This document shows, in pieces, positions 3,262 to 37,453 of a stretch of 37,453 nucleotides of DNA; within the stretch, counting starts at the first letter, position 1, and every line of letters begins with the position of its first letter. Origin of the DNA: a virus; the IMG/VR virus record IMGVR_UViG_3300023223_001048, positions 1 through 37,453 of that record. One strand, given 5' to 3'. A program made the position numbers and the translations under genes. The notes beneath the pieces are model-generated. The model did no database searches, was not told the origin of the DNA, and saw only the letters and a list, made by a program, of their open reading frames with translations.

Positions 3262-3410
3262 TGCTTAATGTAGATTATGAAAGAATTGTGCAATTCCTGG
3301 TTTATATACTTGTATCCTTACCATTGTTGCTAACAGCCTTTGTTTTGATTGCAATGCTGGCTTTATGCTGGTCTTGTTATTATATTCGAATAAAACTTAG
3401 TAATGAATAA
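3261..3410 (+). CDS. Possible 49-aa single-pass membrane protein between terS and terL.
   Basis: TAATG coupling to terS, a hydrophobic core FLVYILVSLPLLLTAFVLIAMLALCW, and an 8-nt overlap with the terL start. Confidence 0.4.
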   Translation: MLNVDYERIVQFLVYILVSLPLLLTAFVLIAMLALCWSCYYIRIKLSNE

Positions 3411-4893
3411 CACAGCAATTAACATAGAATACGTCGATAGACTAGGCGTACTCCTTCAAAAGCCTAAGCGCATTAAGATTCTTGTTGGTGGTCGAGGTTC
3501 TACTAAGTCTACATTCATAGCAGATCATTGTTTAGCTAAAGTAACACAAGGTGATTCTTGGTGCTGTGCTAGAGAGTATTGGAGTTCAATTGATGATTCT
3601 GTTCATTCGCTACTTACTGATGAAATAGATAGATTAGGATTTACAGGTTTTGATGTTTTAGCTAGAGAAATTAACCATATTTCAAAAGGCCGGATATTCT
3701 ATCGTGGCCTTGCTCGCAATATAACGAGCTTAAAAGGAATACATTGCAAAATATTATGGATAGAAGAAGGCGAGACTTTAAGCACTGGTACGCTCAGAGT
3801 ACTAACAGCATCTATTAGAACATCAGCCAAAGAGCAGCAAGAAGCAGAACAGGAAGATCGAGAGATAGAGATCCCTGAGATTTGGATCTCAATGAATCGA
3901 GGTAGTAGTAAAGATCCTATTTCTCAACGTTATCTAAAGCGAGCAGAAAAAGACCTGTTAGAATGCGGTTATTATGAAGATGACTTAATGATTGTCGTTG
4001 AAATAAACTTTGATGAGAATCCGTGGTTCTTAGGTTCGGGACTAGAAGTAGAAAGAGCCGATGACGAAAGATATATGAGTACCGCTGCTTATGAAGCTAA
4101 ATGGTATGGCAAATACTCTGACACTGTCGAGAACGCTATCATCGATCCTGAATGGTTTGATGCATGTATTGATGCACACATTAAATTAGGGTTTAAGCCT
4201 GAAGGTTTAGAGGTTGTAGCACACGATCCTTTTGATGGCGGTAAAGATGCAGCCGGTCTTACGCATATGCATGGCTCTGTATTGATCTATGCGGATGATT
4301 CAAAAGAAGGTAAGGTTAATGACGCTTGTGACTGGGCTTTAGATTATGTTCACACTACTAAACCAGACTTCTTTATCTGGGATGCTGGCGGAATAGGCGC
4401 AGGATTAAAGCGACAGATTACAGACGCATTAGATCAAAAGAATATCAACGTACAAATGTTTGAAGGTCAGGCAAAAGTAGCACACCCTGATCAGATCTAT
4501 GAGCCTACACTTGGTATGGTCATGCAGGCCAAAACAAACCGCCAAACATTTTTAAACCGAAGGGCACAACGATACTGGAATTTAAGAGATAGAATCTTTA
4601 AGACCTATCTGGCTGTCACAGAAAACAAGCATACTGAGATAGGCGAGATGATCAGCTTTAGCTCAAGCATTGCTAAGCTTCCTACTCTTAGATCAGAACT
4701 ATGCAGAATCCCACGCAAATATAACGGCACCGGAAAGATACAAATCTTATCCAAGCCTGAAATGTACAAAGAGGGCATTAATTCGCCTAACATTGGTGAC
4801 CCTGTTATGATGTCGATGGATGCTGAGTTTATTCCTAAAGTAAAACGGCGTAAGCCACAGATGCCATCGATTAATTATTTTGTGAGGCAATGA
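3403..4893 (+). CDS. terL: Large terminase subunit, P22 gp2-like (496 aa).
   Basis: Walker-A-like ILVGGRGSTKST, WIEEGE (Walker B region), and size and gene order as in P22. Confidence 0.9.
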   Translation: MNNTAINIEYVDRLGVLLQKPKRIKILVGGRGSTKSTFIADHCLAKVTQGDSWCCAREYWSSIDDSVHSLLTDEIDRLGFTGFDVLAREINHISKGRIFYRGLARNITSLKGIHCKILWIEEGETLSTGTLRVLTASIRTSAKEQQEAEQEDREIEIPEIWISMNRGSSKDPISQRYLKRAEKDLLECGYYEDDLMIVVEINFDENPWFLGSGLEVERADDERYMSTAAYEAKWYGKYSDTVENAIIDPEWFDACIDAHIKLGFKPEGLEVVAHDPFDGGKDAAGLTHMHGSVLIYADDSKEGKVNDACDWALDYVHTTKPDFFIWDAGGIGAGLKRQITDALDQKNINVQMFEGQAKVAHPDQIYEPTLGMVMQAKTNRQTFLNRRAQRYWNLRDRIFKTYLAVTENKHTEIGEMISFSSSIAKLPTLRSELCRIPRKYNGTGKIQILSKPEMYKEGINSPNIGDPVMMSMDAEFIPKVKRRKPQMPSINYFVRQ

Positions 4894-4905
4894 AGAAATG
4901 AATTT

Positions 4906-5085
4906 ATGACAAATGTTATTTACATAGAAGAATGGAAGAAAAAGAAAGAAGATGTATTAGGTCATACATTAGATACTCGGTTGTTTCGATTGCAGCGTCC
5001 ACATCTTTCCTATTTTGAGCTGTGTAATATATGGGACGACTCACTAAATAGAGAGATAGCCATTGGCACTGATGCGAGTGATTAA
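4906..5085 (+). CDS. Hypothetical small protein (59 aa).
   Basis: This is a plus-strand ORF just under the track cutoff. The antisense ORF 4916..5239 has junk-like composition. Confidence 0.4.
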   Translation: MTNVIYIEEWKKKKEDVLGHTLDTRLFRLQRPHLSYFELCNIWDDSLNREIAIGTDASD

Positions 5086-5105
5086 TAACAATTGAGGCAA
5101 TGATT

Positions 5106-5270
5106 ATGGACACATATATTTTAAAAGTAAATTCAACAAATGGGCTTAAAGAATATGAAGGAAGCGAAGAATATTTTCTGGAAAGTATTACTAATGATGG
5201 TGCGGCAACGCTTAAAATACTAAAAGTCATAGATGACAAGACTATAAGAGTTGCGCCAAAGGAATATTAA
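5106..5270 (+). CDS. Hypothetical small protein (54 aa).
   Basis: A gagg RBS lies 8 nt before the ATG at 5106, on the same strand as the flanking structural genes. Confidence 0.4.
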   Translation: MDTYILKVNSTNGLKEYEGSEEYFLESITNDGAATLKILKVIDDKTIRVAPKEY

Positions 5271-5286
5271 ATAAAGACTAACTATT

Positions 5287-7353
5287 ATGCCACACAAGAA
5301 AGTAGACAATGATCTTGTAACAAATGATGAATTGAATAGAATTCAGATAATCATTGACAGAGATTATTATGCAGTCGATCAACAGCGTGATTGGTCTAAT
5401 GAAGACATACGCTTTGTTGATGTTGATGGCGCTATGTATGAGGACTGGTTCAGAGAAGAATTATTTGATGACCGTCCTAAGATGGAATTTAATAAGGTTG
5501 CCCAATCGGTACACAGATTTTTAGGTGAATGGGCTTCTAATCGTTTCCAGACTAAATTCATTCCTGATGACGGCGTCACCTCTGAGGCAGACGCAGATCT
5601 ATTATCAGGCTTATATCGCAAAGACTTTAGGCGTTCTAGCGGTGCTGAAGCAATTGACAATGCTGTACAAGAGATGGCTAAGGGTGGTTATAGCGCACTC
5701 AGATTATCGACTGAGTTTGTTGATGACGAAGACATTGATAACGATAAACAGAGAGTTATCTTTGAACCTATTTTTTCAGGTTACAATTCTACTATTTTTG
5801 ATGCCAATGCTAAGAAATACGATAAATCGGATGCTAGACACGTTACTTATCTTGAGCAAATCACACATGAGGCTGCCGAGGAAGAATGGGGCGAAAAGAT
5901 ATCGAGCGCTTTTCAACCGCCTAATCAAAGGCGATTCAATTGGAACAATGTTGCTCATGTTTGGATAGGACATTTTTATGAGATCAAAGAAAACAAAGAA
6001 ACGGTAATTGTTTTTGAAGATCCGCTCGGTAGAAGGAAAGCAATTTACGAGAAAGACTTTAAGCCATTCCTTAAAGAGCTAGCAGACGGTGGTTATGAAG
6101 AAATCTCCAAAAGGAAGAAAATCCGTCGAACTGTCTGGAAAACCATTATAGGTGGTACTTCAATTCTTGAAGAAGCTGTAAGAATCCCAGGTAAATTACT
6201 GCCTATTATCCCTATGTACGGCTATAGGTCTTATGTTGATGGAAAGGAATTCTGGTATGGTCTTGTACGAAAGGACAAAGATGCGAACCGATTATTTAAT
6301 ATGGCTGCAACGTCGATGGCTGAAGCCGCAGTGACTACTTCAAAAACTATGCCTATCTTTACGGATGAGCAAGTAGAGGGTCGTGAGTCTCAATTAAGTG
6401 AGATGCACTTAGGCAAACATAATTACGTTATTGTTAATCAATTATATGCGGAGGACGGCAGTATGATTCCGTCTGGCCCTGTCGGTATTTGGCAAGCATC
6501 ACCTGTAGATCCTAATAATGCTGCTGTTATGCAAGTAGCCAGTGAATACATCCAATCTGAAACAGGCGGCGCACCTCAGGACATTCTAGATCCTCATGCA
6601 TCAGGTAAAGCCATCAACGCTATTACCGCTAGAATCGATATGAATACCTTTGAGCTGATGGATAATATCGCCAAGACTTTAAAAAGAATGGGTGAAGTTT
6701 ACCGCTCAATTGCTGGTGAGATATATGATGTAGAACAGAAAGTAAATTTAATTAAAGAAGATGGTACAGACAGTACGGCTGTTTTGTTCGAGTTAATCAC
6801 AGATGAAGAAACCGGCAGAACTAAAGCGATCAATGATATAACGACTGGTGTGTATGAAGTTATTGTAGATACTGGCCCTGCTTTTGCGTCAAGACGTCGA
6901 GAGACAATGCAAGATATGAAAGACATTATGAAAATAACACCAGAAAATTCACCCTATATGCCCTTTTTATATGCTGAATGGATAGCTGCACTGGATGGGC
7001 CAGACTTAGCTGGATTAAAAGACTTTAATTCCCGACAGATGCTAATGATGGGGTTAAGAAAGCCAGAAAATGATGAGGAAGTTGCTTTACTGCAACAACA
7101 AAAAGAAGCGCAAACTAACGAGCAGGGTGAGTATTTTCAAGCCTTGGCCGCAGAAAGCAATGCAAATGCGCAAGAGTCCTTAAGCAATATTGACAAGAAT
7201 GCTTCTGTCGCTCAGTTAAATGCAGCGAAAACAGCAGAGACTTTAAATGGTATAAATATAGATCGCTTTAAGGCCGCTAATGAGGCCATTACTACTAGAA
7301 CTAAGGCAATAGAGTCTAGAGTTAAATTAGCGCAAGGGTTTACTAGGCGTTAA
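5287..7353 (+). CDS. Portal protein, P22 gp1-like (688 aa).
   Basis: Motifs occur in the same order as in P22 gp1: DKSDARH, HFYEIKENKET, IRRTVWKTII. There is also a long Gln/Ala-rich helical C-terminal tail. Confidence 0.92.
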   Translation: MPHKKVDNDLVTNDELNRIQIIIDRDYYAVDQQRDWSNEDIRFVDVDGAMYEDWFREELFDDRPKMEFNKVAQSVHRFLGEWASNRFQTKFIPDDGVTSEADADLLSGLYRKDFRRSSGAEAIDNAVQEMAKGGYSALRLSTEFVDDEDIDNDKQRVIFEPIFSGYNSTIFDANAKKYDKSDARHVTYLEQITHEAAEEEWGEKISSAFQPPNQRRFNWNNVAHVWIGHFYEIKENKETVIVFEDPLGRRKAIYEKDFKPFLKELADGGYEEISKRKKIRRTVWKTIIGGTSILEEAVRIPGKLLPIIPMYGYRSYVDGKEFWYGLVRKDKDANRLFNMAATSMAEAAVTTSKTMPIFTDEQVEGRESQLSEMHLGKHNYVIVNQLYAEDGSMIPSGPVGIWQASPVDPNNAAVMQVASEYIQSETGGAPQDILDPHASGKAINAITARIDMNTFELMDNIAKTLKRMGEVYRSIAGEIYDVEQKVNLIKEDGTDSTAVLFELITDEETGRTKAINDITTGVYEVIVDTGPAFASRRRETMQDMKDIMKITPENSPYMPFLYAEWIAALDGPDLAGLKDFNSRQMLMMGLRKPENDEEVALLQQQKEAQTNEQGEYFQALAAESNANAQESLSNIDKNASVAQLNAAKTAETLNGINIDRFKAANEAITTRTKAIESRVKLAQGFTRR

Positions 7354-7523
7354 CAGAATGTATTTATATTCTTTTTTATTATCTCTTCTGCTGCATAACG
7401 CATATTTAATTCGTGTTCTAATCGTTTTTGATATTGATTAAGTAATCTCACTACCAATTCAATATGATATTTAGTTGGCCCTCTAACAATCTCACCATCC
7501 TCATTTATCGTATATTCATTCAT
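7350..7523 (-). CDS. Hypothetical 57-aa protein, the last gene of the antisense cassette.
   Basis: A ggggag RBS lies 7 nt before the ATG at 7523. Its stop overlaps the portal stop (ttaa at 7350-7353). Confidence 0.5.
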   Translation of the reverse strand: MNEYTINEDGEIVRGPTKYHIELVVRLLNQYQKRLEHELNMRYAAEEIIKKNINTFC

Positions 7524-7535
7524 TATCATACTCCC

Positions 7536-7730
7536 CTAATCATAATCTGGCGCACAAAAAGATATAGTTAATCTAGTTTTACATTTATTGCACTCCATCG
7601 CCGCCACACAACAATTATTAGTTTTTGTATCTCTGTGACATCCATATTTTTTTATCTCTGGTGTTTTCGTATCAACATATTCATACACACCACTACATGA
7701 ACAATGTATATTTTCTATATCTCTGGACAT
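7536..7730 (-). CDS. Cys-rich 64-aa protein with 8 Cys, probably zinc-binding.
   Basis: agaggattagaataATG RBS, and motifs CSCSG...C.H...CC...CNKC...C. Confidence 0.6.
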   Translation of the reverse strand: MSRDIENIHCSCSGVYEYVDTKTPEIKKYGCHRDTKTNNCCVAAMECNKCKTRLTISFCAPDYD

Positions 7731-7742
7731 TATTCTAATCCT

Positions 7743-7868
7743 CTAAATATAAGCAAAAAACATAAGTAAAAACCCAATCGTAAGGCCGATAAGTAATGCC
7801 CTAATACAAACAAATAATATTGATTTTACAGTAATTTTATTATAATAATTTATTTTGGGAATTTTCAT
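7743..7868 (-). CDS. Possible 41-aa membrane peptide.
   Basis: gaggattgaaataATG RBS and a hydrophobic stretch ILFVCIRALLIGLTIGFLLMFFAYI. Confidence 0.45.
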   Translation of the reverse strand: MKIPKINYYNKITVKSILFVCIRALLIGLTIGFLLMFFAYI

Positions 7869-7969
7869 TATTTCAATCCTCATATTTGCAGTTAGCACAC
7901 TATTTTGTTATTATAGGTTTGTTGAAGATATACTGTTTTGCATGGTATAACCCGAGAAGCCCTAGAGGA

Positions 7970-8296
7970 TTAGTTCCCCTTCAGGGCTTTTTGTTTTTCT
8001 TCTTCTCTTGATTGTGCTACCTCATTGTCCAATCTAAACATTTCCAATTCTCTGGCCAAAAACTCAGATTTTTGTTTCCTGCATAAAAGTCTTTTTGTTA
8101 AATATTTTGCGAAATCTTCCATTTCTGCTGGTTTAAATTCTATTTTATCTATATTTTTCTCATCATAATCAATAGTAAAAATAACTTTATCCTTGAAGAA
8201 CTCTCTTAGATCTTTTTCCCATATGCATTTTGCAGTAGGAATTCCATAGTAACCAAAACTATATTCTTCAATAAATTCTTCAAGTTGACCATTCAT
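7970..8296 (-). CDS. Hypothetical 108-aa protein whose C-terminal motif is shared with the upstream gene.
   Basis: agagaggataatagcaATG RBS. The C-terminus FLARELEMFRLDNEVAQSREEE parallels ILAEEFENFKKDNYVSESREDN. Confidence 0.6.
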   Translation of the reverse strand: MNGQLEEFIEEYSFGYYGIPTAKCIWEKDLREFFKDKVIFTIDYDEKNIDKIEFKPAEMEDFAKYLTKRLLCRKQKSEFLARELEMFRLDNEVAQSREEEKQKALKGN

Positions 8297-8465
8297 TGCT
8301 ATTATCCTCTCTTGACTCTGAAACATAATTGTCTTTCTTAAAATTTTCGAATTCTTCAGCTAATATTTTATTAATAAGTGGTCTAAATTTATAGAAAATT
8401 GAAAGTGCGCTCAAGGCAGCAATTTCAGAATCAGAGCAAATTTCATCATCAAGTTCATCTTTCAT
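8280..8465 (-). CDS. Hypothetical acidic 61-aa protein.
   Basis: An agagaggataATGATG RBS/start lies inside the 3' end of the upstream gene. An alternative start is at 8468. Confidence 0.55.
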   Translation of the reverse strand: MKDELDDEICSDSEIAALSALSIFYKFRPLINKILAEEFENFKKDNYVSESREDNSNEWST

Positions 8466-8649
8466 CATTATCCTCTCTATGCTTAGCCATAAACTCATGC
8501 AAGTTTTCTTTTCTTCTTTCTCTGGCCGAAAGTTCAAAAATAAGCTCAGGGTATCTAGCGTGATTTATTATGACCTTGCGTTCTTTTGCAACTGTCTTAA
8601 AAATTTCCTGTGCACCATGGCGCCATTGAGTGGAAGTAAATGTTTTCAT
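8455..8649 (-). CDS. Hypothetical 64-aa protein with a weak resemblance to Phd/YefM-type antitoxin N-termini.
   Basis: MKTFTSTQWRHGAQEIFKTVAKERKVIINHARYPELIFEL fits the pattern by eye only. ATGA coupling to the upstream gene. Confidence 0.55.
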   Translation of the reverse strand: MKTFTSTQWRHGAQEIFKTVAKERKVIINHARYPELIFELSARERRKENLHEFMAKHREDNDER

Positions 8650-8885
8650 TTTTTTACTCTCTTTCGTTTCTTTCTTCTGATCAAATCGATAAATAAAGGG
8701 ATAAATACTTCCTCATTTACCGTATATTCATTATATTCATATTCAACATCAGGATATAAAGATCTTAATAAATCAAGTTCGATATTGAATCTTAATTCCC
8801 ATCTCGGCCTACCATTTGTCATGGTTCTGTAATTAGTTCCTACGCGTACTTTTCTTTGTTCAATTAATTCTTCGATTGTATCCAT
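8646..8885 (-). CDS. Hypothetical 79-aa protein with a basic tail (RRKKRKRVKK), the first gene of the antisense cassette.
   Basis: A ggag RBS lies 8 nt before the ATG at 8885. Confidence 0.55.
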   Translation of the reverse strand: MDTIEELIEQRKVRVGTNYRTMTNGRPRWELRFNIELDLLRSLYPDVEYEYNEYTVNEEVFIPLFIDLIRRKKRKRVKK

Positions 8886-9033
8886 AATACGCTCCGTTAA
8901 ATTGCACACAATGCATGCTGCATATACAGTGTACGCACAATTGTAACAGATATGCCAATGTATAACTAACTTGTAGTATTATTACTTCGAACGCCGGTAG
9001 AAATACCGAGGTAATCCACTAATAGGTGAGAGC

Positions 9034-9936
9034 ATGGCAGATGAAACCGAACAGTTAAACGAAGAAACTACCGTCGAAGTTAAAGCTGAAGAGACTGATC
9101 CTCCCTCAGAAGAAACCACCGACGAGTCTAAAGAAATTGAAGAAAACGAGATCGTTTTAGCTGGTCAAGAGACTGAAAAAGGCAAGTCAGCGCCTAAAGA
9201 TAATAAGCCTTTTATAATTAAAAGGTTTGCGAAAAAGAACGACAAGTTGCAAAGCGAGAATACAGCGTTAAAGGCGCAATTACAGCAAATGGCAAGCGCG
9301 CCCGTTGTTGATGGCGTAGAAGCTGAGCCAGACGAATTAGATTTTGATGATCATAAGGATTATTTAGCGGCAAAATCTAAGCATCAAGCCAAGCTTTTAA
9401 GAAGTGTGGTTAATGAACGGTTGGCTGAAGAACAAAACGCACATCGTATTGCAGCGGTACAACAGCAAAAAGAGAGTGCATTAAAGACGTATACAGAGAG
9501 TGCGGCTGCGTTGAAAGTTTCTGATTTTAATGAGACGCAAGACAAAGCTTTTGATGTATTAGGCGACGATTTTGCACAATTGATTATGGAAGAAATTCCA
9601 GAAGAAGGTTCCAAATTGATTTATTGGTTTGGAAAGAACCCTCAAGAAGCTGTTGAATATCGGGAGAGATATCTTAGAAATCCTGGTAAGACTACTTTTT
9701 CGCTAGGTAAGCTGGCTGGTAAATTGACCATACAGCCGAAACGATCAAATGCAGCTGATCCTGAAAGTAAAGTGGATAATGCTAGTGTTGGTGGAAGCGA
9801 TAGTGATTGGCAGAAGCAGCTTGATAAGATAGATAAAGCTGTCACTAATAAGACTATTTCCAAATCAGTAAACGCTAGACGAGAAGTTAAAAAGCAGGCA
9901 AAAGCAGCAGGATTTGACGTTTCGACACTTAACTAG
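9034..9936 (+). CDS. Probable scaffolding protein (300 aa).
   Basis: It lies just upstream of the coat gene, is about the size of P22 gp8 (303 aa), has an acidic N-terminus, and is helical and charged throughout. Confidence 0.7.
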   Translation: MADETEQLNEETTVEVKAEETDPPSEETTDESKEIEENEIVLAGQETEKGKSAPKDNKPFIIKRFAKKNDKLQSENTALKAQLQQMASAPVVDGVEAEPDELDFDDHKDYLAAKSKHQAKLLRSVVNERLAEEQNAHRIAAVQQQKESALKTYTESAAALKVSDFNETQDKAFDVLGDDFAQLIMEEIPEEGSKLIYWFGKNPQEAVEYRERYLRNPGKTTFSLGKLAGKLTIQPKRSNAADPESKVDNASVGGSDSDWQKQLDKIDKAVTNKTISKSVNARREVKKQAKAAGFDVSTLN

Positions 9937-9948
9937 TGAGAAACGATC

Positions 9949-11229
9949 ATGAGTAATCAAGCAAAGATAGTCACCCGAGTATTGGGTGATGAGTTAGAAA
10001 AGTTTGAGGCAGATAATATATGCCTTAGACGATCAACAGTTAGACGCATGGGTGGTCAATCAGGTCATCGTAGCGAGTTCACAGAATGGTATGACGTACC
10101 CTATGTCTCTACAACTGTAGACGGATTATCGCTTACAGATTTTAATGAGATAACAGGTCTAGCCGTACCGCACAGAGTTAATGTATATACTAATACGCAT
10201 TTTAGGCTCACAAATACCGATATCTTAGATACCTCAGAATTAAGCCGTAAGGTAGCATCAGGTTTTCAAGCCCTAGATAATCGTATCAATGTTGCTTGTG
10301 CTAATGCCGTTAACATCCAAGGCAGTCAGTATGTATCAAGTACTGTTCCATTAGCTGGTTTTGCAGATGTTGCAGATGTAGATACACGTTTTACTGAGCA
10401 AGATGTAAGTCAGATAACCGATAAGACAATGATCTTAAATCCTGGCGATTATAACAACATGGCCAATGATTTACAGATTGCAAGTCGATCTATTAACCCT
10501 AATAGCATTTCTGAAAACGCGTACGAAAAGGCTAAGATTGCAGAGATTGCGAACTTTTTAACTTTCAAAACCTCTTTTACGCCAGTTAAGGCAGCTGCTG
10601 TATTGGCTTCTACAACGGTTACTGGTGCTCAATCTGCCATTCCTGTCGGTCATATTTTGGATGCAGAAGGAAATCCGACCAATGTAGATAATCGTAGAAT
10701 GAATTTAGTTGTCGCTAGTACTGCGGGTGTTGTGCCTGGTGATAAATTCACGATTTCTACGGTTAACGCAGTGTCTATGCAAAACAAAAATGATACTGGG
10801 AATCTGAGAACTTTTACAGTTTTAGCCGTGGTTGACGCGACTAACATGACTATTAGCCCTCAAATTGTTCCTGTTACAGCTTCAGCTACAACCACAGCAA
10901 CACAATCTCAGAAAGATTGGGCTAATGTGACCGTTGAAGCTCCAGCAGCAGGCACCGTAACATTTATTAACTTTGATGATGCGAATACCAACTTATTTTG
11001 GGAAAACGATGCAATTAGTATCAATGTTGCGCCAGTCGTTGGATCAGAAGAAGACTTAGGTGGCATGATCTTGATGAATGCTACGACCGAGTTAGGTTTA
11101 AATGTTGTTATTGCTAAGCAGGGCGATATTGCTGATTTATCCACGCAATGGCGTATGACTACCTTTTTCGGTATAACAATTCGTGATCCGCTGAAATGCG
11201 GTGTGTTAGCAGGATCACAAACACCTTAA
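9949..11229 (+). CDS. Major capsid (coat) protein, P22 gp5-like (426 aa).
   Basis: P22 gp5-like motifs: NVDNRRMNL, NLFWENDAISI (P22: NVFWADDAIRI), QGDIADLS, and the C-terminal GVLAGSQTP. Confidence 0.9.
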   Translation: MSNQAKIVTRVLGDELEKFEADNICLRRSTVRRMGGQSGHRSEFTEWYDVPYVSTTVDGLSLTDFNEITGLAVPHRVNVYTNTHFRLTNTDILDTSELSRKVASGFQALDNRINVACANAVNIQGSQYVSSTVPLAGFADVADVDTRFTEQDVSQITDKTMILNPGDYNNMANDLQIASRSINPNSISENAYEKAKIAEIANFLTFKTSFTPVKAAAVLASTTVTGAQSAIPVGHILDAEGNPTNVDNRRMNLVVASTAGVVPGDKFTISTVNAVSMQNKNDTGNLRTFTVLAVVDATNMTISPQIVPVTASATTTATQSQKDWANVTVEAPAAGTVTFINFDDANTNLFWENDAISINVAPVVGSEEDLGGMILMNATTELGLNVVIAKQGDIADLSTQWRMTTFFGITIRDPLKCGVLAGSQTP

Positions 11230-27733: not shown

Positions 27734-28270
27734 GTGGAATTTGAAAGCTTTGAAAAAATAGCTCGTCTCAACAGAGGGATTGTAGTTACTGAAAAAATAG
27801 ATGGTACCAATTCACAGATAGCATTCGATGAAGACCTTAATATGTTTGTTGGTAGCCGTAATCGATGGATAACTCCAGATAACGATAATGCAGGGTTTGC
27901 TCGTTGGGCAAATGAAAACAAAGAAGAATTAGAAAATCTTGGGCCTGGGCGCCATTATGGTGAATGGTGGGGGTCTGGAATTCAAAGAAGATATGGGATG
28001 GATAAAAAGATATTTTCTTTATTTAATACTGGAAGATGGAGTAATGATCGCCCTTCCTGCTGCGATCTTGTTCCGCTCTTGTATGCAGGCAAGTACAGTG
28101 AAAATGAAATAAATAATTGCTTAATAGACCTGGAAAAAAACGGTAGTAAAGCTGCTCCTGGGTTTATGAACGCAGAAGGTGTTGTTGTCTATCATGCGGC
28201 AGCAAGGAAATGTTTCAAAGTAACAATCAAGAACGATGAAAAGCCAAAAGGAAGTAACGAGATAGGCTAG
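27734..28270 (+). CDS. Stand-alone RNA ligase, nucleotidyltransferase domain only (178 aa, GTG start).
   Basis: Ligase motifs I EKIDGTN, IV AEGVVVY and V FKVTIKN. Motif I sits about 20 aa from the GTG, which follows ttaacttttggagg by 7 nt. Confidence 0.85.
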   Translation: MEFESFEKIARLNRGIVVTEKIDGTNSQIAFDEDLNMFVGSRNRWITPDNDNAGFARWANENKEELENLGPGRHYGEWWGSGIQRRYGMDKKIFSLFNTGRWSNDRPSCCDLVPLLYAGKYSENEINNCLIDLEKNGSKAAPGFMNAEGVVVYHAAARKCFKVTIKNDEKPKGSNEIG

Positions 28271-28284
28271 AAATTATTTTATTA

Positions 28285-28396
28285 ACGATAGGCTTTTATT
28301 TAAGCTGGGTAAGCTGCTTGGTAGAGCGTCCTACGACCAGTAGGAAGGGTGGGTTCGATTCCCACGCCTCGCTCCATAGATACGATAGGCTTTTAT
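28285..28396. repeat. Two exact 15-bp direct repeats (acgataggcttttat at 28285-28299 and 28382-28396) bracketing the tRNA-like gene. A degenerate third copy, aacgagataggct, lies at the ligase stop (28255-28267).
   Basis: Read directly from the sequence. Confidence 0.9.
28304..28376 (+). tRNA. Non-canonical tRNA-like gene (73 nt with encoded CCA) that has Gly-type acceptor features and an aberrant anticodon loop.
   Basis: Acceptor GCTGGGT/GCCTCGC (1 mismatch, 2 G-U). D arm GCTG-CTTGGTA-GAGC. Anticodon stem TCCTA/TAGGA with loop CGACCAG, which has G rather than U at position 33 and anticodon ACC. A 3-nt variable loop. Canonical T arm GTGGG-TTCGATT-CCCAC. U73 followed by CCA. Confidence 0.5.
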
Positions 28397-35506: not shown

Positions 35507-37453
35507 ATGACAATTAGAAACACTATTCAGAACACTATCCGGAACACTGTCCAAGATACTATTAGTGATGGCGCTGTTCCGGCCGTGGAATTTATTTCTT
35601 TCTGGAAGACCGATAACCCAGGCACTTCTAATAACGATCAGATCAGCTTGCCTTTAGTAGCGTCTGGCACTTATAACTTCTTCGTGGATTGGGGCGATGG
35701 TAATTCAGATACAATCACTGTTTGGAATCAGGCAGAAGTCACCCATACTTATGCCGTTATCGATAGTTATGATGTGATAATAACAGGGACTATTACTGGA
35801 TTTAGATTCAACAATGCTGGCGATGAAGAAAAGTTATTAGTGATTAGTATGTATGGGCCATTAATTCTGGGGACTTTAGGCCGTTATTTTAACGGTTGTG
35901 TTAATTTAAAACTAACGGCTACTGATATTTTAGATACTTCTACAACAACGGATATGGATTCCGCATTCATGAATTGTTCTAATTTAACAACTGCCCCAAA
36001 TATGGGTCAGTGGGACATGTCTAATGTAACAATGTTTGACAATACGTTTAACGGTGCAACTGTCTTTAATGAAAATATTAGTGCTTGGAATACTTCTTCT
36101 GCCATATCTATGTCTTCGGTGTTTGCTAATGCAAGTACCTTTAATAGTGATATTGGATCTTGGGATTTATCATCAGTTACTAATGTGGTTGGAATACTTC
36201 AAAATGCGACTGTTTTCAATCAAGATATTAGTAGCTGGAATGTTGGATCAGCCACTTCTTTTGCTAATGTGTTTTCCGGTGCAGTCGCTTTCAATCAAGA
36301 TATCGATATTTGGGATGTATCGTCTTCAGCTAATATGTCCAATATGTTTAACGGAGCCACAGCCTTTAATCAGCCTTTGAATACTTGGAATGTTGCTCTG
36401 GTTACCAATATGTTTTCGATGTTTCGAGATGCGGCAGCTTTTAATCAATCACTTAATAGTTGGAATGTTGCTTTAGTTACTAATATGTCAGACATGTTTG
36501 AGGGAGCCACAGGGTTTAATCAAAATATTACCAGTTGGAATGTCTCTGCTGTTACTACTATGGAATTAATGTTTTTTGGTGCCTCTATTTTCAATCAAGA
36601 TATCAGTGGTTGGACTGTTTCAAGTGTCCTTGATATGTCGAATATGTTCAAAAATGCGCTTGCATTTAATCAAGCCATTGGCGTTTGGAATGTTTCAAGC
36701 GTCACTACGATGGATTCTATGTTTTGCGGTGCGGCTGCTTTCAATCAAGCAGTGAATGCCTGGACTGTGACTGCTGTTACTGATATGGACAGTATGTTTG
36801 ATAATGCTACGGTCTTTGATCAAGATGTGAGCGGATGGAATGTTATTAACTTAACGACAGCGGCTTTAATGTTTAATGGATCTGCCTTTCAGATTACAAA
36901 CTATGATTTGTTATTGGTGGCTTGGGATGCGCTAGCCTTACAAAGCAGTGTTACTTTTGATGCAGGAGCCGCGATGTTTAGTAGTGGTGCGCCAGCTACA
37001 GCAAAAGCGAACATGATTTCTAGTGATCTTTGGACTATTACAGATGGCGGCGAATTACCGTTTTTACCTGATCAAATCGCCGGTTTACAGTTATGGCTAG
37101 ATGCTGATGACGCAAGTACTATTACTTCGGCAGCGGATTTTGTCTCACAGTGGGATGATAAGTCTGGAAACGGATTCGATGCAACACAAGGGACTGGTTC
37201 TGCTCAACCAATGACCAATCAAAACACATTAAATAGTTTGAATGTTATTACGACAGATGGCAACGACTCTATGTTACTGCCTTCAGGACTTAATGCTCTT
37301 GCTAATGGCCCGAATACGATGTTTGCAGTTGCTAGAAGGGCAGCAGAAGTTGGCGGCAGCGAAGAAATTATTGCTTTCACCAGTGGCGCAACGGATGAAT
37401 ATGGCTGTTTTTATGGTAATACATCAGGAACCGCTTTCTTTTTAAACAATTCA
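35507..37453 (+). CDS. DUF285/BspA-like repeat protein fused to a LamG lectin domain. It is open at the window end and continues at base 145 after the overlap, ending at 441, for about 747 aa in total.
   Basis: ATG at 35507 (MTIRNTIQNTIRNTVQDTI...). The frame has no stop to 37453, so the ORF track missed it. Repeats of the form FNQDISxWNVSxVTxMxxMF are followed by LQLWLDADD.... Confidence 0.85.
   Translation, partial: MTIRNTIQNTIRNTVQDTISDGAVPAVEFISFWKTDNPGTSNNDQISLPLVASGTYNFFVDWGDGNSDTITVWNQAEVTHTYAVIDSYDVIITGTITGFRFNNAGDEEKLLVISMYGPLILGTLGRYFNGCVNLKLTATDILDTSTTTDMDSAFMNCSNLTTAPNMGQWDMSNVTMFDNTFNGATVFNENISAWNTSSAISMSSVFANASTFNSDIGSWDLSSVTNVVGILQNATVFNQDISSWNVGSATSFANVFSGAVAFNQDIDIWDVSSSANMSNMFNGATAFNQPLNTWNVALVTNMFSMFRDAAAFNQSLNSWNVALVTNMSDMFEGATGFNQNITSWNVSAVTTMELMFFGASIFNQDISGWTVSSVLDMSNMFKNALAFNQAIGVWNVSSVTTMDSMFCGAAAFNQAVNAWTVTAVTDMDSMFDNATVFDQDVSGWNVINLTTAALMFNGSAFQITNYDLLLVAWDALALQSSVTFDAGAAMFSSGAPATAKANMISSDLWTITDGGELPFLPDQIAGLQLWLDADDASTITSAADFVSQWDDKSGNGFDATQGTGSAQPMTNQNTLNSLNVITTDGNDSMLLPSGLNALANGPNTMFAVARRAAEVGGSEEIIAFTSGATDEYGCFYGNTSGTAFFLNNS
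35940..36900 (+). repeat. About 11-12 tandem coding repeats of 75 nt (25 aa) inside the DUF285/BspA-like gene.
   Basis: ttcaatcaagata recurs at 36215 and 36290 (period 75). The peptide series is VFNENISAWN, TFNSDIGSWD, VFNQDISSWN, AFNQDIDIWD, AFNQPLNTWN, AFNQSLNSWN, GFNQNITSWN, IFNQDISGWT, AFNQAIGVWN, AFNQAVNAWT, VFDQDVSGWN. Confidence 0.85.
37310..37453. repeat. Right copy of the 144-bp terminal direct repeat, identical to 1-144.
   Basis: Exact match read base by base. Confidence 0.95.

Follow-up and report, generated by a model that had tools for sequence, protein, structure and literature searches.

The DNA analysed here (the window) is the entire 37,453-nt Joint Genome Institute (JGI) metagenome contig IMGVR_UViG_3300023223_001048 of IMG/VR, and the segment that lies between the portal gene (5287-7353) and the scaffold gene (9034-9936) of its P22-type head module is one instance of an old, position-conserved island and not a private insertion. 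Seven small open reading frames (ORFs; o1 to o7) occupy the minus strand of this segment (7350-8909), and an antisense island is found in the same slot, from scaffold start to portal stop, in at least 24 uncultured phage contigs. The island is real and compositionally distinct, it is anchored by one gene (o2) whose product is predicted to have the fold of the Phd/YefM antitoxins, and its content is exchanged rapidly: the small ORFan genes around o2 show rapid gain, loss and replacement, which is evident even when phages with 91% identical portals are compared. The segment is best read as an old accessory island that keeps a fixed, antisense position at the portal-scaffold junction in a clade of uncultured P22-like phages.

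In the window, the portal gene was identified by PF16510 (E 1.6e-121) and the scaffold gene by PF09306 and phrog_648. The two genes are adjacent in P22, APSE-1, Shewanella phage ZP9, a Manatee Spring phage and some Vibrio phages, as well as in three close uncultured relatives (L003, L005 and L006; loci are designated here by L numbers) that have no island; the adjacency that the first-pass annotation of the window had taken from P22 was thus confirmed in relatives. In L005, the portal stop is only 24 nt from the scaffold ATG, with the same ribosome-binding site (RBS) context as in the window, and in L003 and L006 about 110 nt with a terminator separate the two genes. This is a canonical intrinsic terminator (GAGGTCGCATTTTGCGGCCTTTTTTT; L003 2882-2990, L006 984-1090), and because of it the junction can be a transcriptional boundary even when it is empty. 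Antisense cassettes resembling that of the window were found in L002, L010, L011 and L012, and the size of the islands ranges from 0.35 to 2.3 kb.

The island differs in composition from its surroundings. The G+C (GC) content of the cassette in the window is 30.9%, against 40.2% in the portal gene, 40.5% in the scaffold gene and 37.2% in the entire genome; this places it in the lowest 1.1% of genome windows of the same size, and the sign of the GC skew reverses over it. The GC content of the island is below that of its portal in 17 of 18 islands (mean difference, 5.6 points). The first-pass annotation had described the segment as more AT-rich than the portal gene, which is correct, although the 28% GC given there was too low. 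It had also regarded the segment as a moron. The deviant composition and the plausible sigma70-type promoters (see below) agree with this view, but the recurrence of the island, in at least 24 contigs, shows that it was no one-off insertion.

All seven ORFs were found where they had been placed at first pass, and each has its own RBS as had been reported (GGAG, GAGG or GAGAG, 6-9 nt upstream). The first, o1 (8646-8885; 79 amino acids (aa), isoelectric point (pI) 9.3), has the basic C-terminal tail RRKKRKRVKK and sits directly upstream of o2 with a 4-nt overlap. The o2 protein (8455-8649; 64 aa) begins with a domain of predicted Phd/YefM fold (residues 1-45) and ends in a variable helix. The o3 protein (8280-8468; 62 aa, or 61 aa from the second ATG) is acidic (pI 4.3), and o4 (7970-8296; 108 aa, pI 5.1) is a mosaic, of which the middle part resembles the C-terminus of o3. 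The common C-terminal motif of o3 and o4, pointed out at first pass, was supported by Smith-Waterman alignment (score 58 versus 28.3 ± 5.3 for shuffled sequences, with 0 of 5,000 shuffles as high); BLASTP of o3 versus o4 reported no alignment. The 41-aa o5 (7743-7868; GC content 23%, the lowest of the cassette) has one hydrophobic stretch of transmembrane length and a grand average of hydropathy of 1.29. The o6 protein (7536-7730; 64 aa) contains 8 Cys and possibly binds zinc; its only sequence similarity in the PDB was to the zinc-ribbon protein eL42 (E 0.14, not significant). Finally, the stop codon of o7 (7350-7523; 57 aa) overlaps that of the portal gene in the sequence ttaa at 7350-7353, as already noticed, and the 57-aa form of o7 was also called in L009 by the JGI gene caller. 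The ORFs o1 to o4 overlap or abut, as do o5 to o7, and a 101-nt non-coding gap (7869-7969) lies between the groups. This gap, with a strong hairpin and a conserved TATAAT, divides what had been described as one string of seven tightly coupled genes, and the island in the window probably comprises two transcription units, o1-o4 and o5-o7.

No family had been recognised for these proteins at first pass, and scans of all seven against Pfam, PHROGs, NCBIfam and PADLOC likewise gave nothing above threshold. The sole family match for o1 was a weak, partial one to MTase_II of PADLOC (E 3e-4), and the other six proteins had no PADLOC match. Sequence searches of the PDB with o1, o4, o6, o7 and the o2 profile gave chance-level matches only. 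The AlphaFold2 (AF2) model of o1, calculated from a two-sequence alignment, was unusable (predicted local distance difference test score (pLDDT), 56.8) and was left out of the fold search.

That the ORFs are non-functional (arisen by chance or decaying), or that they encode virion or decoration proteins, is scarcely credible. The lack of homologues of o3, o5 and o6 beyond identical contigs and a ratio of nonsynonymous to synonymous substitution rates (dN/dS) near 1 in the N-terminus of o4 would fit this explanation, but ORFs of at least 40 aa occupy 94% of the cassette strand, compared with 12.6 ± 10.5% (maximum, 55.6%) in 1,000 dinucleotide-preserving shuffles, and an RBS precedes every one of them. 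Moreover, o1, o2 and o7 are under purifying selection, the orientation is opposite to that of the late operon, and no structural families were matched.

The all-against-all comparison identified o2 as the sole gene common to the cassettes. It was called in 22 of the 24 loci; the exceptions are L010, where the contig ends, and L030, where the gene caller missed o2 and tblastn finds it, so that no island with both of its ends on the contig lacks o2. It fills the slot alone in L016 and L029, and its rank in the island varies from the first to the last gene. The profile search gave a family of 18 members, and the exhaustive HMMER search gave 241 representatives (50% identity) of 50-141 aa at E<=1e-3. 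The N-terminal domain of about 45 residues is conserved in this family (MKTFTAKELNKSPAQVFRAADKDGSVKINHDRYPDKVFILEARER) and carries an invariant H-x-R-Y-P motif, whereas the C-termini are highly variable. With a single exception (L041), the homologues with readable context are antisense between scaffold start and portal stop in a P22-like head module (L002, L011, L012, L016-L023, L045, L046 and most of the 18 IMG/VR loci), and the portals of the o2 loci range from 25% to 100% in identity and from 40% to 56% in GC content. In L041, the o2-family gene (2296-2508) is antisense in a non-P22 head module, flanked by a 451-aa gene and by a 374-aa gene, the latter lying after an Sf11-type portal (E 6e-51). 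No match was obtained in 50,697 deposited phage genomes, either by tblastn with two o2-family proteins or by nucleotide searches with the region and with the head module of the window, and the closest cultured portals are about 34% identical to that of the window.

The identity of the o2 domain follows that of the portal (Mantel r 0.62, with 0 of 5,000 permutations as high). Between the window and L011, the synonymous divergence (dS) of o2 is 0.76, similar to that of the portal (0.67), and dN/dS is 0.22 (range for o2, 0.22-0.39); the GC content of o2 (0.374) is the highest in the cassette. Since o2 tracks portal identity, has a portal-like dS and has the highest GC content of the cassette, it is an old resident that co-diverged with the head module, not recent cargo.

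The weak Phd/YefM likeness of o2 suggested at first pass was supported at the level of the predicted fold, with the sequence signal staying below threshold. No Pfam match at E<=1 was found for o2 itself; in 9 of the 18 family members PF02604 was matched below threshold (E>=0.015, below the 29.8-bit cut-off), and o2 is not a member of PF02604 by the curated sequence threshold. The AF2 model of o2, calculated from the family alignment, has a pLDDT of 83.8 overall and above 90 over residues 1-40. When the PDB was searched with this model by Foldseek, the top matches (about 41) were all antitoxins of the Phd, YefM or VapB46 type (probability up to 1.0), headed by 4zm2, 4zlx, 2a6q and 6jqy, and the neighbours included operator-bound Phd. 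The N-terminal domain fits the isolated DNA-binding domains 4zlx_A and 6jqy_A with a root-mean-square deviation of 2.0-2.4 Å over 42-45 residues and a target-normalised TM-score of 0.70-0.76; the Foldseek E-values are only 0.02-1 because the domain is small. The top neighbours in BFVD were phage proteins annotated as antitoxin or Phd. The modelled N-terminal domain has the beta-alpha-alpha-beta-beta arrangement of Phd/YefM proteins, and we predict from it that o2 has a Phd/YefM-type DNA-binding/dimerisation fold. Like these antitoxins (PF02604; P1 Phd, E. coli YefM), o2 is small and combines the same 45-residue N-terminal fold and the N-terminal pattern M-K/R-T-F/I-T/S ... V-x-I with a variable C-terminal segment; unlike them, it scores below the Pfam threshold, has the H-x-R-Y-P motif and no adjacent toxin, and has its fixed place in a phage head module, not in a toxin-antitoxin operon of two genes.

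In contrast to o2, the rest of the island turns over quickly. The 101 island genes of at least 40 aa from the 24 loci fell into 63 families, of which 51 were singletons. The portals of the window and L011 are 91% identical, yet o3, o5 and o6 are swapped for unrelated genes in L011, and L010 (portal also 91% identical) has two unrelated genes where o5-o7 stand in the window. Among 5.8 billion clusters, o1 has one homologue, P0026 in L011 (53% identity; dN/dS 0.41). Homologues of o7 are L011_82 (41% identity) and L047_91 (45%), with dN/dS of 0.41-0.61; for comparison with these values of 0.4-0.6 for o1 and o7, dN/dS of the portal is 0.07. The N-terminus and the last residues (KALKGN) of o4 are common to L011_73 (62% identity) and a partial ORF of L010, and no further homologue was found in the 5.8 billion clusters. 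For the N-terminal part of o4 (46 codons), dN/dS against L011 is 0.97 and dS is only 0.18, compared with 0.66-0.76 for o1, o2, o7 and the portal in the same genome pair, which suggests a recent exchange of this piece between lineages. No homologue of o3 was found in any fetched locus and no family was matched, so o3 is unique cargo; o3, o5 and o6 are all unique apart from an identical fragment from another sample (L009), which holds an identical copy of o5.

The cargo proteins are small and often acidic or membrane-associated. No defence, structural-protein or enzyme families were found among the 50 non-o2 island proteins scanned (Pfam, PHROGs and PADLOC); one of the 50 matched a ribbon-helix-helix (RHH) family (antitoxin-like), and a few matched PHROGs of unknown function. 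In particular, PADLOC detected no defence-system family in the 50 proteins, and 43 island proteins from other loci had no PADLOC match at all.

The fold of o2 invites comparison with toxin-antitoxin systems, an option also named at first pass. It is nevertheless very unlikely that the island is a module of the classical type II toxin-antitoxin, addiction, superinfection-exclusion or defence kind, in which o2 would neutralise o1 or o3, or o5 would exclude phages. Such a module could account for the antitoxin fold of o2, the small and basic o1 overlapping it directly upstream, the membrane peptide o5, which is like some exclusion or holin-like proteins, and the RHH antitoxin-like gene of one island elsewhere. 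However, no adjacent, co-conserved toxin was found: the neighbours of o2 differ in nearly every island, with o1 present elsewhere in L011 only and o3 nowhere else, no toxin fold or family was detected, and one tail type of o2 (KENLHEFMAKHRE) was seen beside five different neighbour sets. We disfavour the toxin-antitoxin option because o2 is solo in some islands, has no conserved neighbour, and has a C-tail type that does not covary with the adjacent genes.

A scan of 20 of the larger non-head ORFs, a subset of the ORFs of the genome that included RecT-like, DHH phosphoesterase, RNA ligase, LexA DNA-binding-domain and PadR-like proteins, revealed neither an integrase nor a CI-type repressor, so there is no support for prophage-based exclusion. 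The first and last 144 bases of the window are identical (1-144 and 37310-37453; terminal direct repeat), so the contig is a circularly assembled, probably complete phage genome with about 37.3 kb of unique sequence. With neither integrase nor CI among the scanned ORFs, and with a contig that represents a circular phage genome of this size, a lysogenic-conversion moron expressed from a prophage is unsupported. An integron cassette array was also considered and rejected: those 20 ORFs include no integrase and there are no attC sites, the overlapping or abutting ORFs leaving no room for attC-like repeats.

If o2 is an antitoxin without a toxin in the island, its partner may be in the host. It is conceivable, although unlikely, that o2 is an orphan antitoxin acting in counter-defence, with an N-terminal domain that dimerises and a C-terminal helix that neutralises host toxins (of the Doc, YoeB, RelE or ParE type) released as abortive infection, the other genes being independent cargo. 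Phage orphan antitoxins are established counter-defences (PMC11825919, PMC11481870), o2 has the architecture of an antitoxin (a folded N-terminal domain and a variable C-terminal helix modelled with lower confidence), it occurs without an encoded partner, and its BFVD neighbours carry antitoxin or Phd annotations. The KENLHEFMAKHRE tail type is kept across islands with differing neighbours, which fits a target encoded outside the island. On the other hand, the best-conserved part of o2 is the DNA-binding domain and not the putative toxin-binding tail, the tails are very diverse and at times nearly absent (50-56 aa proteins in L025, L028 and L029), and the strict positional linkage to the head module is left unexplained.

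The candidate regulatory signals of the window are concentrated at two sites. The first is the divergent intergenic region between o1 and scaffold (8886-9033), which is largely conserved with L011 and holds a candidate island promoter, P1, and a hairpin. P1 (8940-8948, minus strand) has the extended -10 element TGtTACAAT and a weak -35 element; L011 has TGgTACAAT at this position. Clear predicted sigma70 promoters were found at the equivalent position in L035 (TTGACT-16-TATAAT), L036 (TTGACA-16-TACAAT), L019 (TTGCGT-17-TATAGT) and L002 (TTGGCA-17-TATAGT), and promoter-like elements were seen at the scaffold-proximal end of the island in all lineages inspected. Over the -10 element of P1 and its likely start site lie the palindromes ACAATTGT (8937-8944) and TACACTGTA (8925-8933), which are 11.5 bp apart from centre to centre, about 0.6 such 8-bp palindromes being expected per 150 bp. 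For comparison, the N-terminal domain of YefM and Phd recognises palindromes that occur in pairs, 12-13 bp apart, over the -10 element (PMC1802561).

The small hairpin of this region (8995-9008, CGGTA-TTTC-TACCG) is just 5' of the scaffold RBS and may act as 5' stabiliser, operator or late-promoter element. A hairpin of 5-6 bp is also present at the scaffold RBS in L011, L016, L025, L029, L030, L033, L035-L037 and L046, with stems that differ by lineage in a covariation-like manner, and several lineages have a AGGTAAACGCAAAC-like sequence 5' of it. L005, which has no island, does not have the hairpin.

The second site is the region between o4 and o5, where the window shares a block of about 150 bp with L010 and L011 (conservation above 90%) despite different downstream genes. 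On the minus strand, it contains the predicted promoter P2 (7869-7915), with TATAAT (7910-7915), a conserved leader and an RBS before o5. The leader TATAATAACAAAATAGTGTGCTAACTGCAAATA is nearly identical before o5, L011_161 and L010_104 and partly so before L010_103; thus, the hairpin, the TATAAT and the leader occur together in the window, L011 and L010 (twice, one of them partial), ahead of unrelated genes. A stem-loop and promoter composite that flanks non-homologous genes in related phages is the arrangement that defines promoter early stem-loops (PeSLs). Exact leader and hairpin patterns gave 0 matches in viral_contigs and metagenome_contigs. On the plus strand, the hairpin and a U-tract (7953-8006) form a predicted intrinsic terminator in the direction of the late operon (dG -20.6 kcal/mol, z -3.3; none of 200 shuffles was as stable), after which comes UUUUUGUUUUUCUU. 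Read on the minus strand, this hairpin (7957-7989) lies over the o4 stop codon without a U-tract (dG -19.4 kcal/mol, z -2.5). When late-sense terminators were sought over all islands, convincing ones were found in the group of the window, L010 and L011 only, and no island-sense terminator was found. Without the latter before the portal gene, transcription of the island would have to continue into portal in antisense, and late transcription would have to cross the island in antisense. An alternative or additional plus-strand promoter, TTTGCA-18-TGtTATTAT (7885-7914), is followed about 40 nt later by the terminator, and as a hypothesis only, a plus-strand RNA of about 80 nt (7885-8006) may end at this terminator and be antisense to the 3' end of o4 and the o5 leader. 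The match of 7881-8003 (plus strand) to MicC in Rfam was not significant (27.2 bits versus a gathering score of 90; E 0.31).

These signals raise the question of whether the island mainly regulates the head genes, with o2 controlling the scaffold-coat operon at the divergent promoter region, antisense transcription and the late-sense terminator or a small RNA setting the timing or ratio of portal versus scaffold and coat, and the cargo hitch-hiking. We consider this quite improbable. It would explain why the operon of o2 always diverges from scaffold and converges on portal, over portals that are 25-100% identical, and why o2 is also found in a different head module (L041); the hairpin-containing element just 5' of the scaffold RBS in most islands, the strong plus-sense terminator inside the island of the window and the terminator between portal and scaffold in L003 and L006 point in the same direction. 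Close relatives, however, manage without an island, as in L005 with its 24 nt between the portal stop and the scaffold ATG. Furthermore, the late-sense terminator is restricted to the window, L010 and L011, o2 can be more than 1 kb from the scaffold promoter region (L035), and the small-RNA idea depends on the insignificant Rfam match.

The reading that we favour, with slightly less than even confidence, is that the segment is an independently transcribed accessory island whose cargo serves host takeover or counter-defence, with o2 as its autoregulator, a function that we infer from gene content, predicted fold and signals. According to this proposal, host RNA polymerase would transcribe the island from its own sigma70-type promoters, P1 before o1 and P2 before o5, independently of the late operon and probably earlier. 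The o2 protein would be a dimeric autorepressor of the island promoter, like Aca in an anti-CRISPR operon, and its repression would limit strong antisense transcription that is convergent into portal and divergent from scaffold. The cargo, namely the acidic o3 and o4, the membrane peptide o5, the Cys-rich o6, o1 and o7, would be host-directed effectors (takeover, counter-defence or exclusion), and the conserved module of hairpin, promoter and leader would supply both expression signals and recombination homology, allowing cargo exchange between phages.

Several observations weigh against this proposal. P1 was not called by a generic consensus scan, because its -35 element is weak; its palindromes are short, at chance level, and centred 1 nt differently in L011; and no convincing operator motif common to all island lineages was found. 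The variable tail at the C-terminus of the o2 proteins has no obvious use in an autoregulator, the position of o2 in the island varies, unlike that of aca genes, and o2 is below the Pfam threshold for PF02604. With its U-tract on the late-sense strand, the hairpin fits a PeSL-type island terminator only loosely. Lastly, none of the island proteins matched a known anti-defence or exclusion protein in the general libraries, no dedicated anti-defence search having been made.

The island has features of several known systems. As in acr-aca operons, one conserved gene for a predicted DNA-binding fold is linked to changing small ORFans behind its own (here predicted) promoter, and the anchor gene can be used to find islands. 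The differences are that aca genes are usually last in the operon, while the position of o2 varies, and that no Acr homologue emerged from the scans of the island proteins; known Aca proteins are helix-turn-helix (HTH) proteins, plus one RHH family, Aca14, and none is of the Phd/YefM type (PMC13551039, 2026 survey). As with the morons of lambdoid phages, extra genes with deviant composition and their own predicted promoter are inserted between genes that are adjacent in related phages; in contrast to these, the island is long-lived and multi-gene with a resident anchor rather than a sporadic single insertion, no terminator is evident on its strand, and no prophage context was identified. The stem-loop and promoter composite that flanks variable ORFans and is more than 90% identical between phages is like the PeSL cassettes of T4-type phages (PMC2839356, PMC4122927), from which it differs in the phage type, in the U-tract of its hairpin being on the opposite strand, and in its occurrence in three genomes only. 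Elements such as morons, hypervariable regions and anchor-plus-cargo anti-defence loci are already known; a Phd/YefM-fold anchor fixed antisense at the portal-scaffold junction is apparently new, and no published description of one was found in a limited literature search.

P22 itself has a small, partly antisense regulatory and accessory region amid its late genes, immI (mnt-arc-ant), which encodes small dimeric DNA-binding repressors. The island resembles immI in being such a region embedded among the late genes of a P22-like phage. However, immI is located near the tailspike gene and Arc and Mnt are RHH proteins, whereas the island is at the portal-scaffold junction, its anchor has a different predicted fold, and no antirepressor homologue is present.

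A bolder form of the favoured proposal, which we regard as somewhat unlikely, is that the o2 family constitutes an Aca-like anchor of Phd/YefM fold, neither HTH nor RHH, of a counter-defence or takeover island in many uncultured P22-like phages and at least one non-P22 head module, and that repression by o2 couples the shut-off of the island to the onset of late head-gene transcription. If this is true, undescribed anti-defence or exclusion proteins would be available in the roughly 60 cargo families and could be found by guilt by association. New anti-defence proteins have been found most productively through hypervariable islands that have a conserved anchor (aca genes for anti-CRISPRs), and the o2 family offers a new anchor, a distinct family of predicted Phd/YefM fold tied to about 60 small, essentially unannotated protein families. 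The island is also relevant to the question of how a late structural operon can accommodate an antisense transcription unit as a permanent resident, and if the anchor instead regulates scaffold and coat expression, it would represent a new layer of control in P22-like head assembly.

Other genes were also found in or near the head modules. The portal-scaffold slot of one Vibrio phage holds two plus-strand genes, and large plus-strand genes with polyvalent-protein signatures are present in the slot of L001 (6373-7605), L007 (7261-9243) and L008 (8145-10392). Matches to LPD23 (E 9e-8), a weak match to ART-PolyVal and HExxH-like motifs were found in these three, which may encode packaged or injected proteins; the polyvalent-protein class was reportedly proposed by Iyer in 2017 to act in phage-host conflict. 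In L012, an HNH endonuclease gene (PF13392; 4656-5216) is on the opposite strand just 3' of the coat gene. In the window, the head module further includes the terminase (3403-4893) and coat (9949-11229) genes. The spacer between terminase and portal (4894-5286) contains small plus-strand ORFs of 59 and 56 aa, and the corresponding region of L010 (1-665) contains ORFs of 64, 46 and 70 aa; they are not conserved between the two, the portals of which are 91% identical, and the spacer is thus a second variable slot. Outside the head module, a second AT-rich block on the minus strand (20500-22900; GC content 0.30, negative GC skew) contains the gene for the RecT-like annealing protein (20968-22176) and small ORFs, and is probably a leftward early operon. 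A tRNA-Gly gene (anticodon acc; 28304-28376, plus strand) adjoins the RNA-ligase-like gene (27734-28270).

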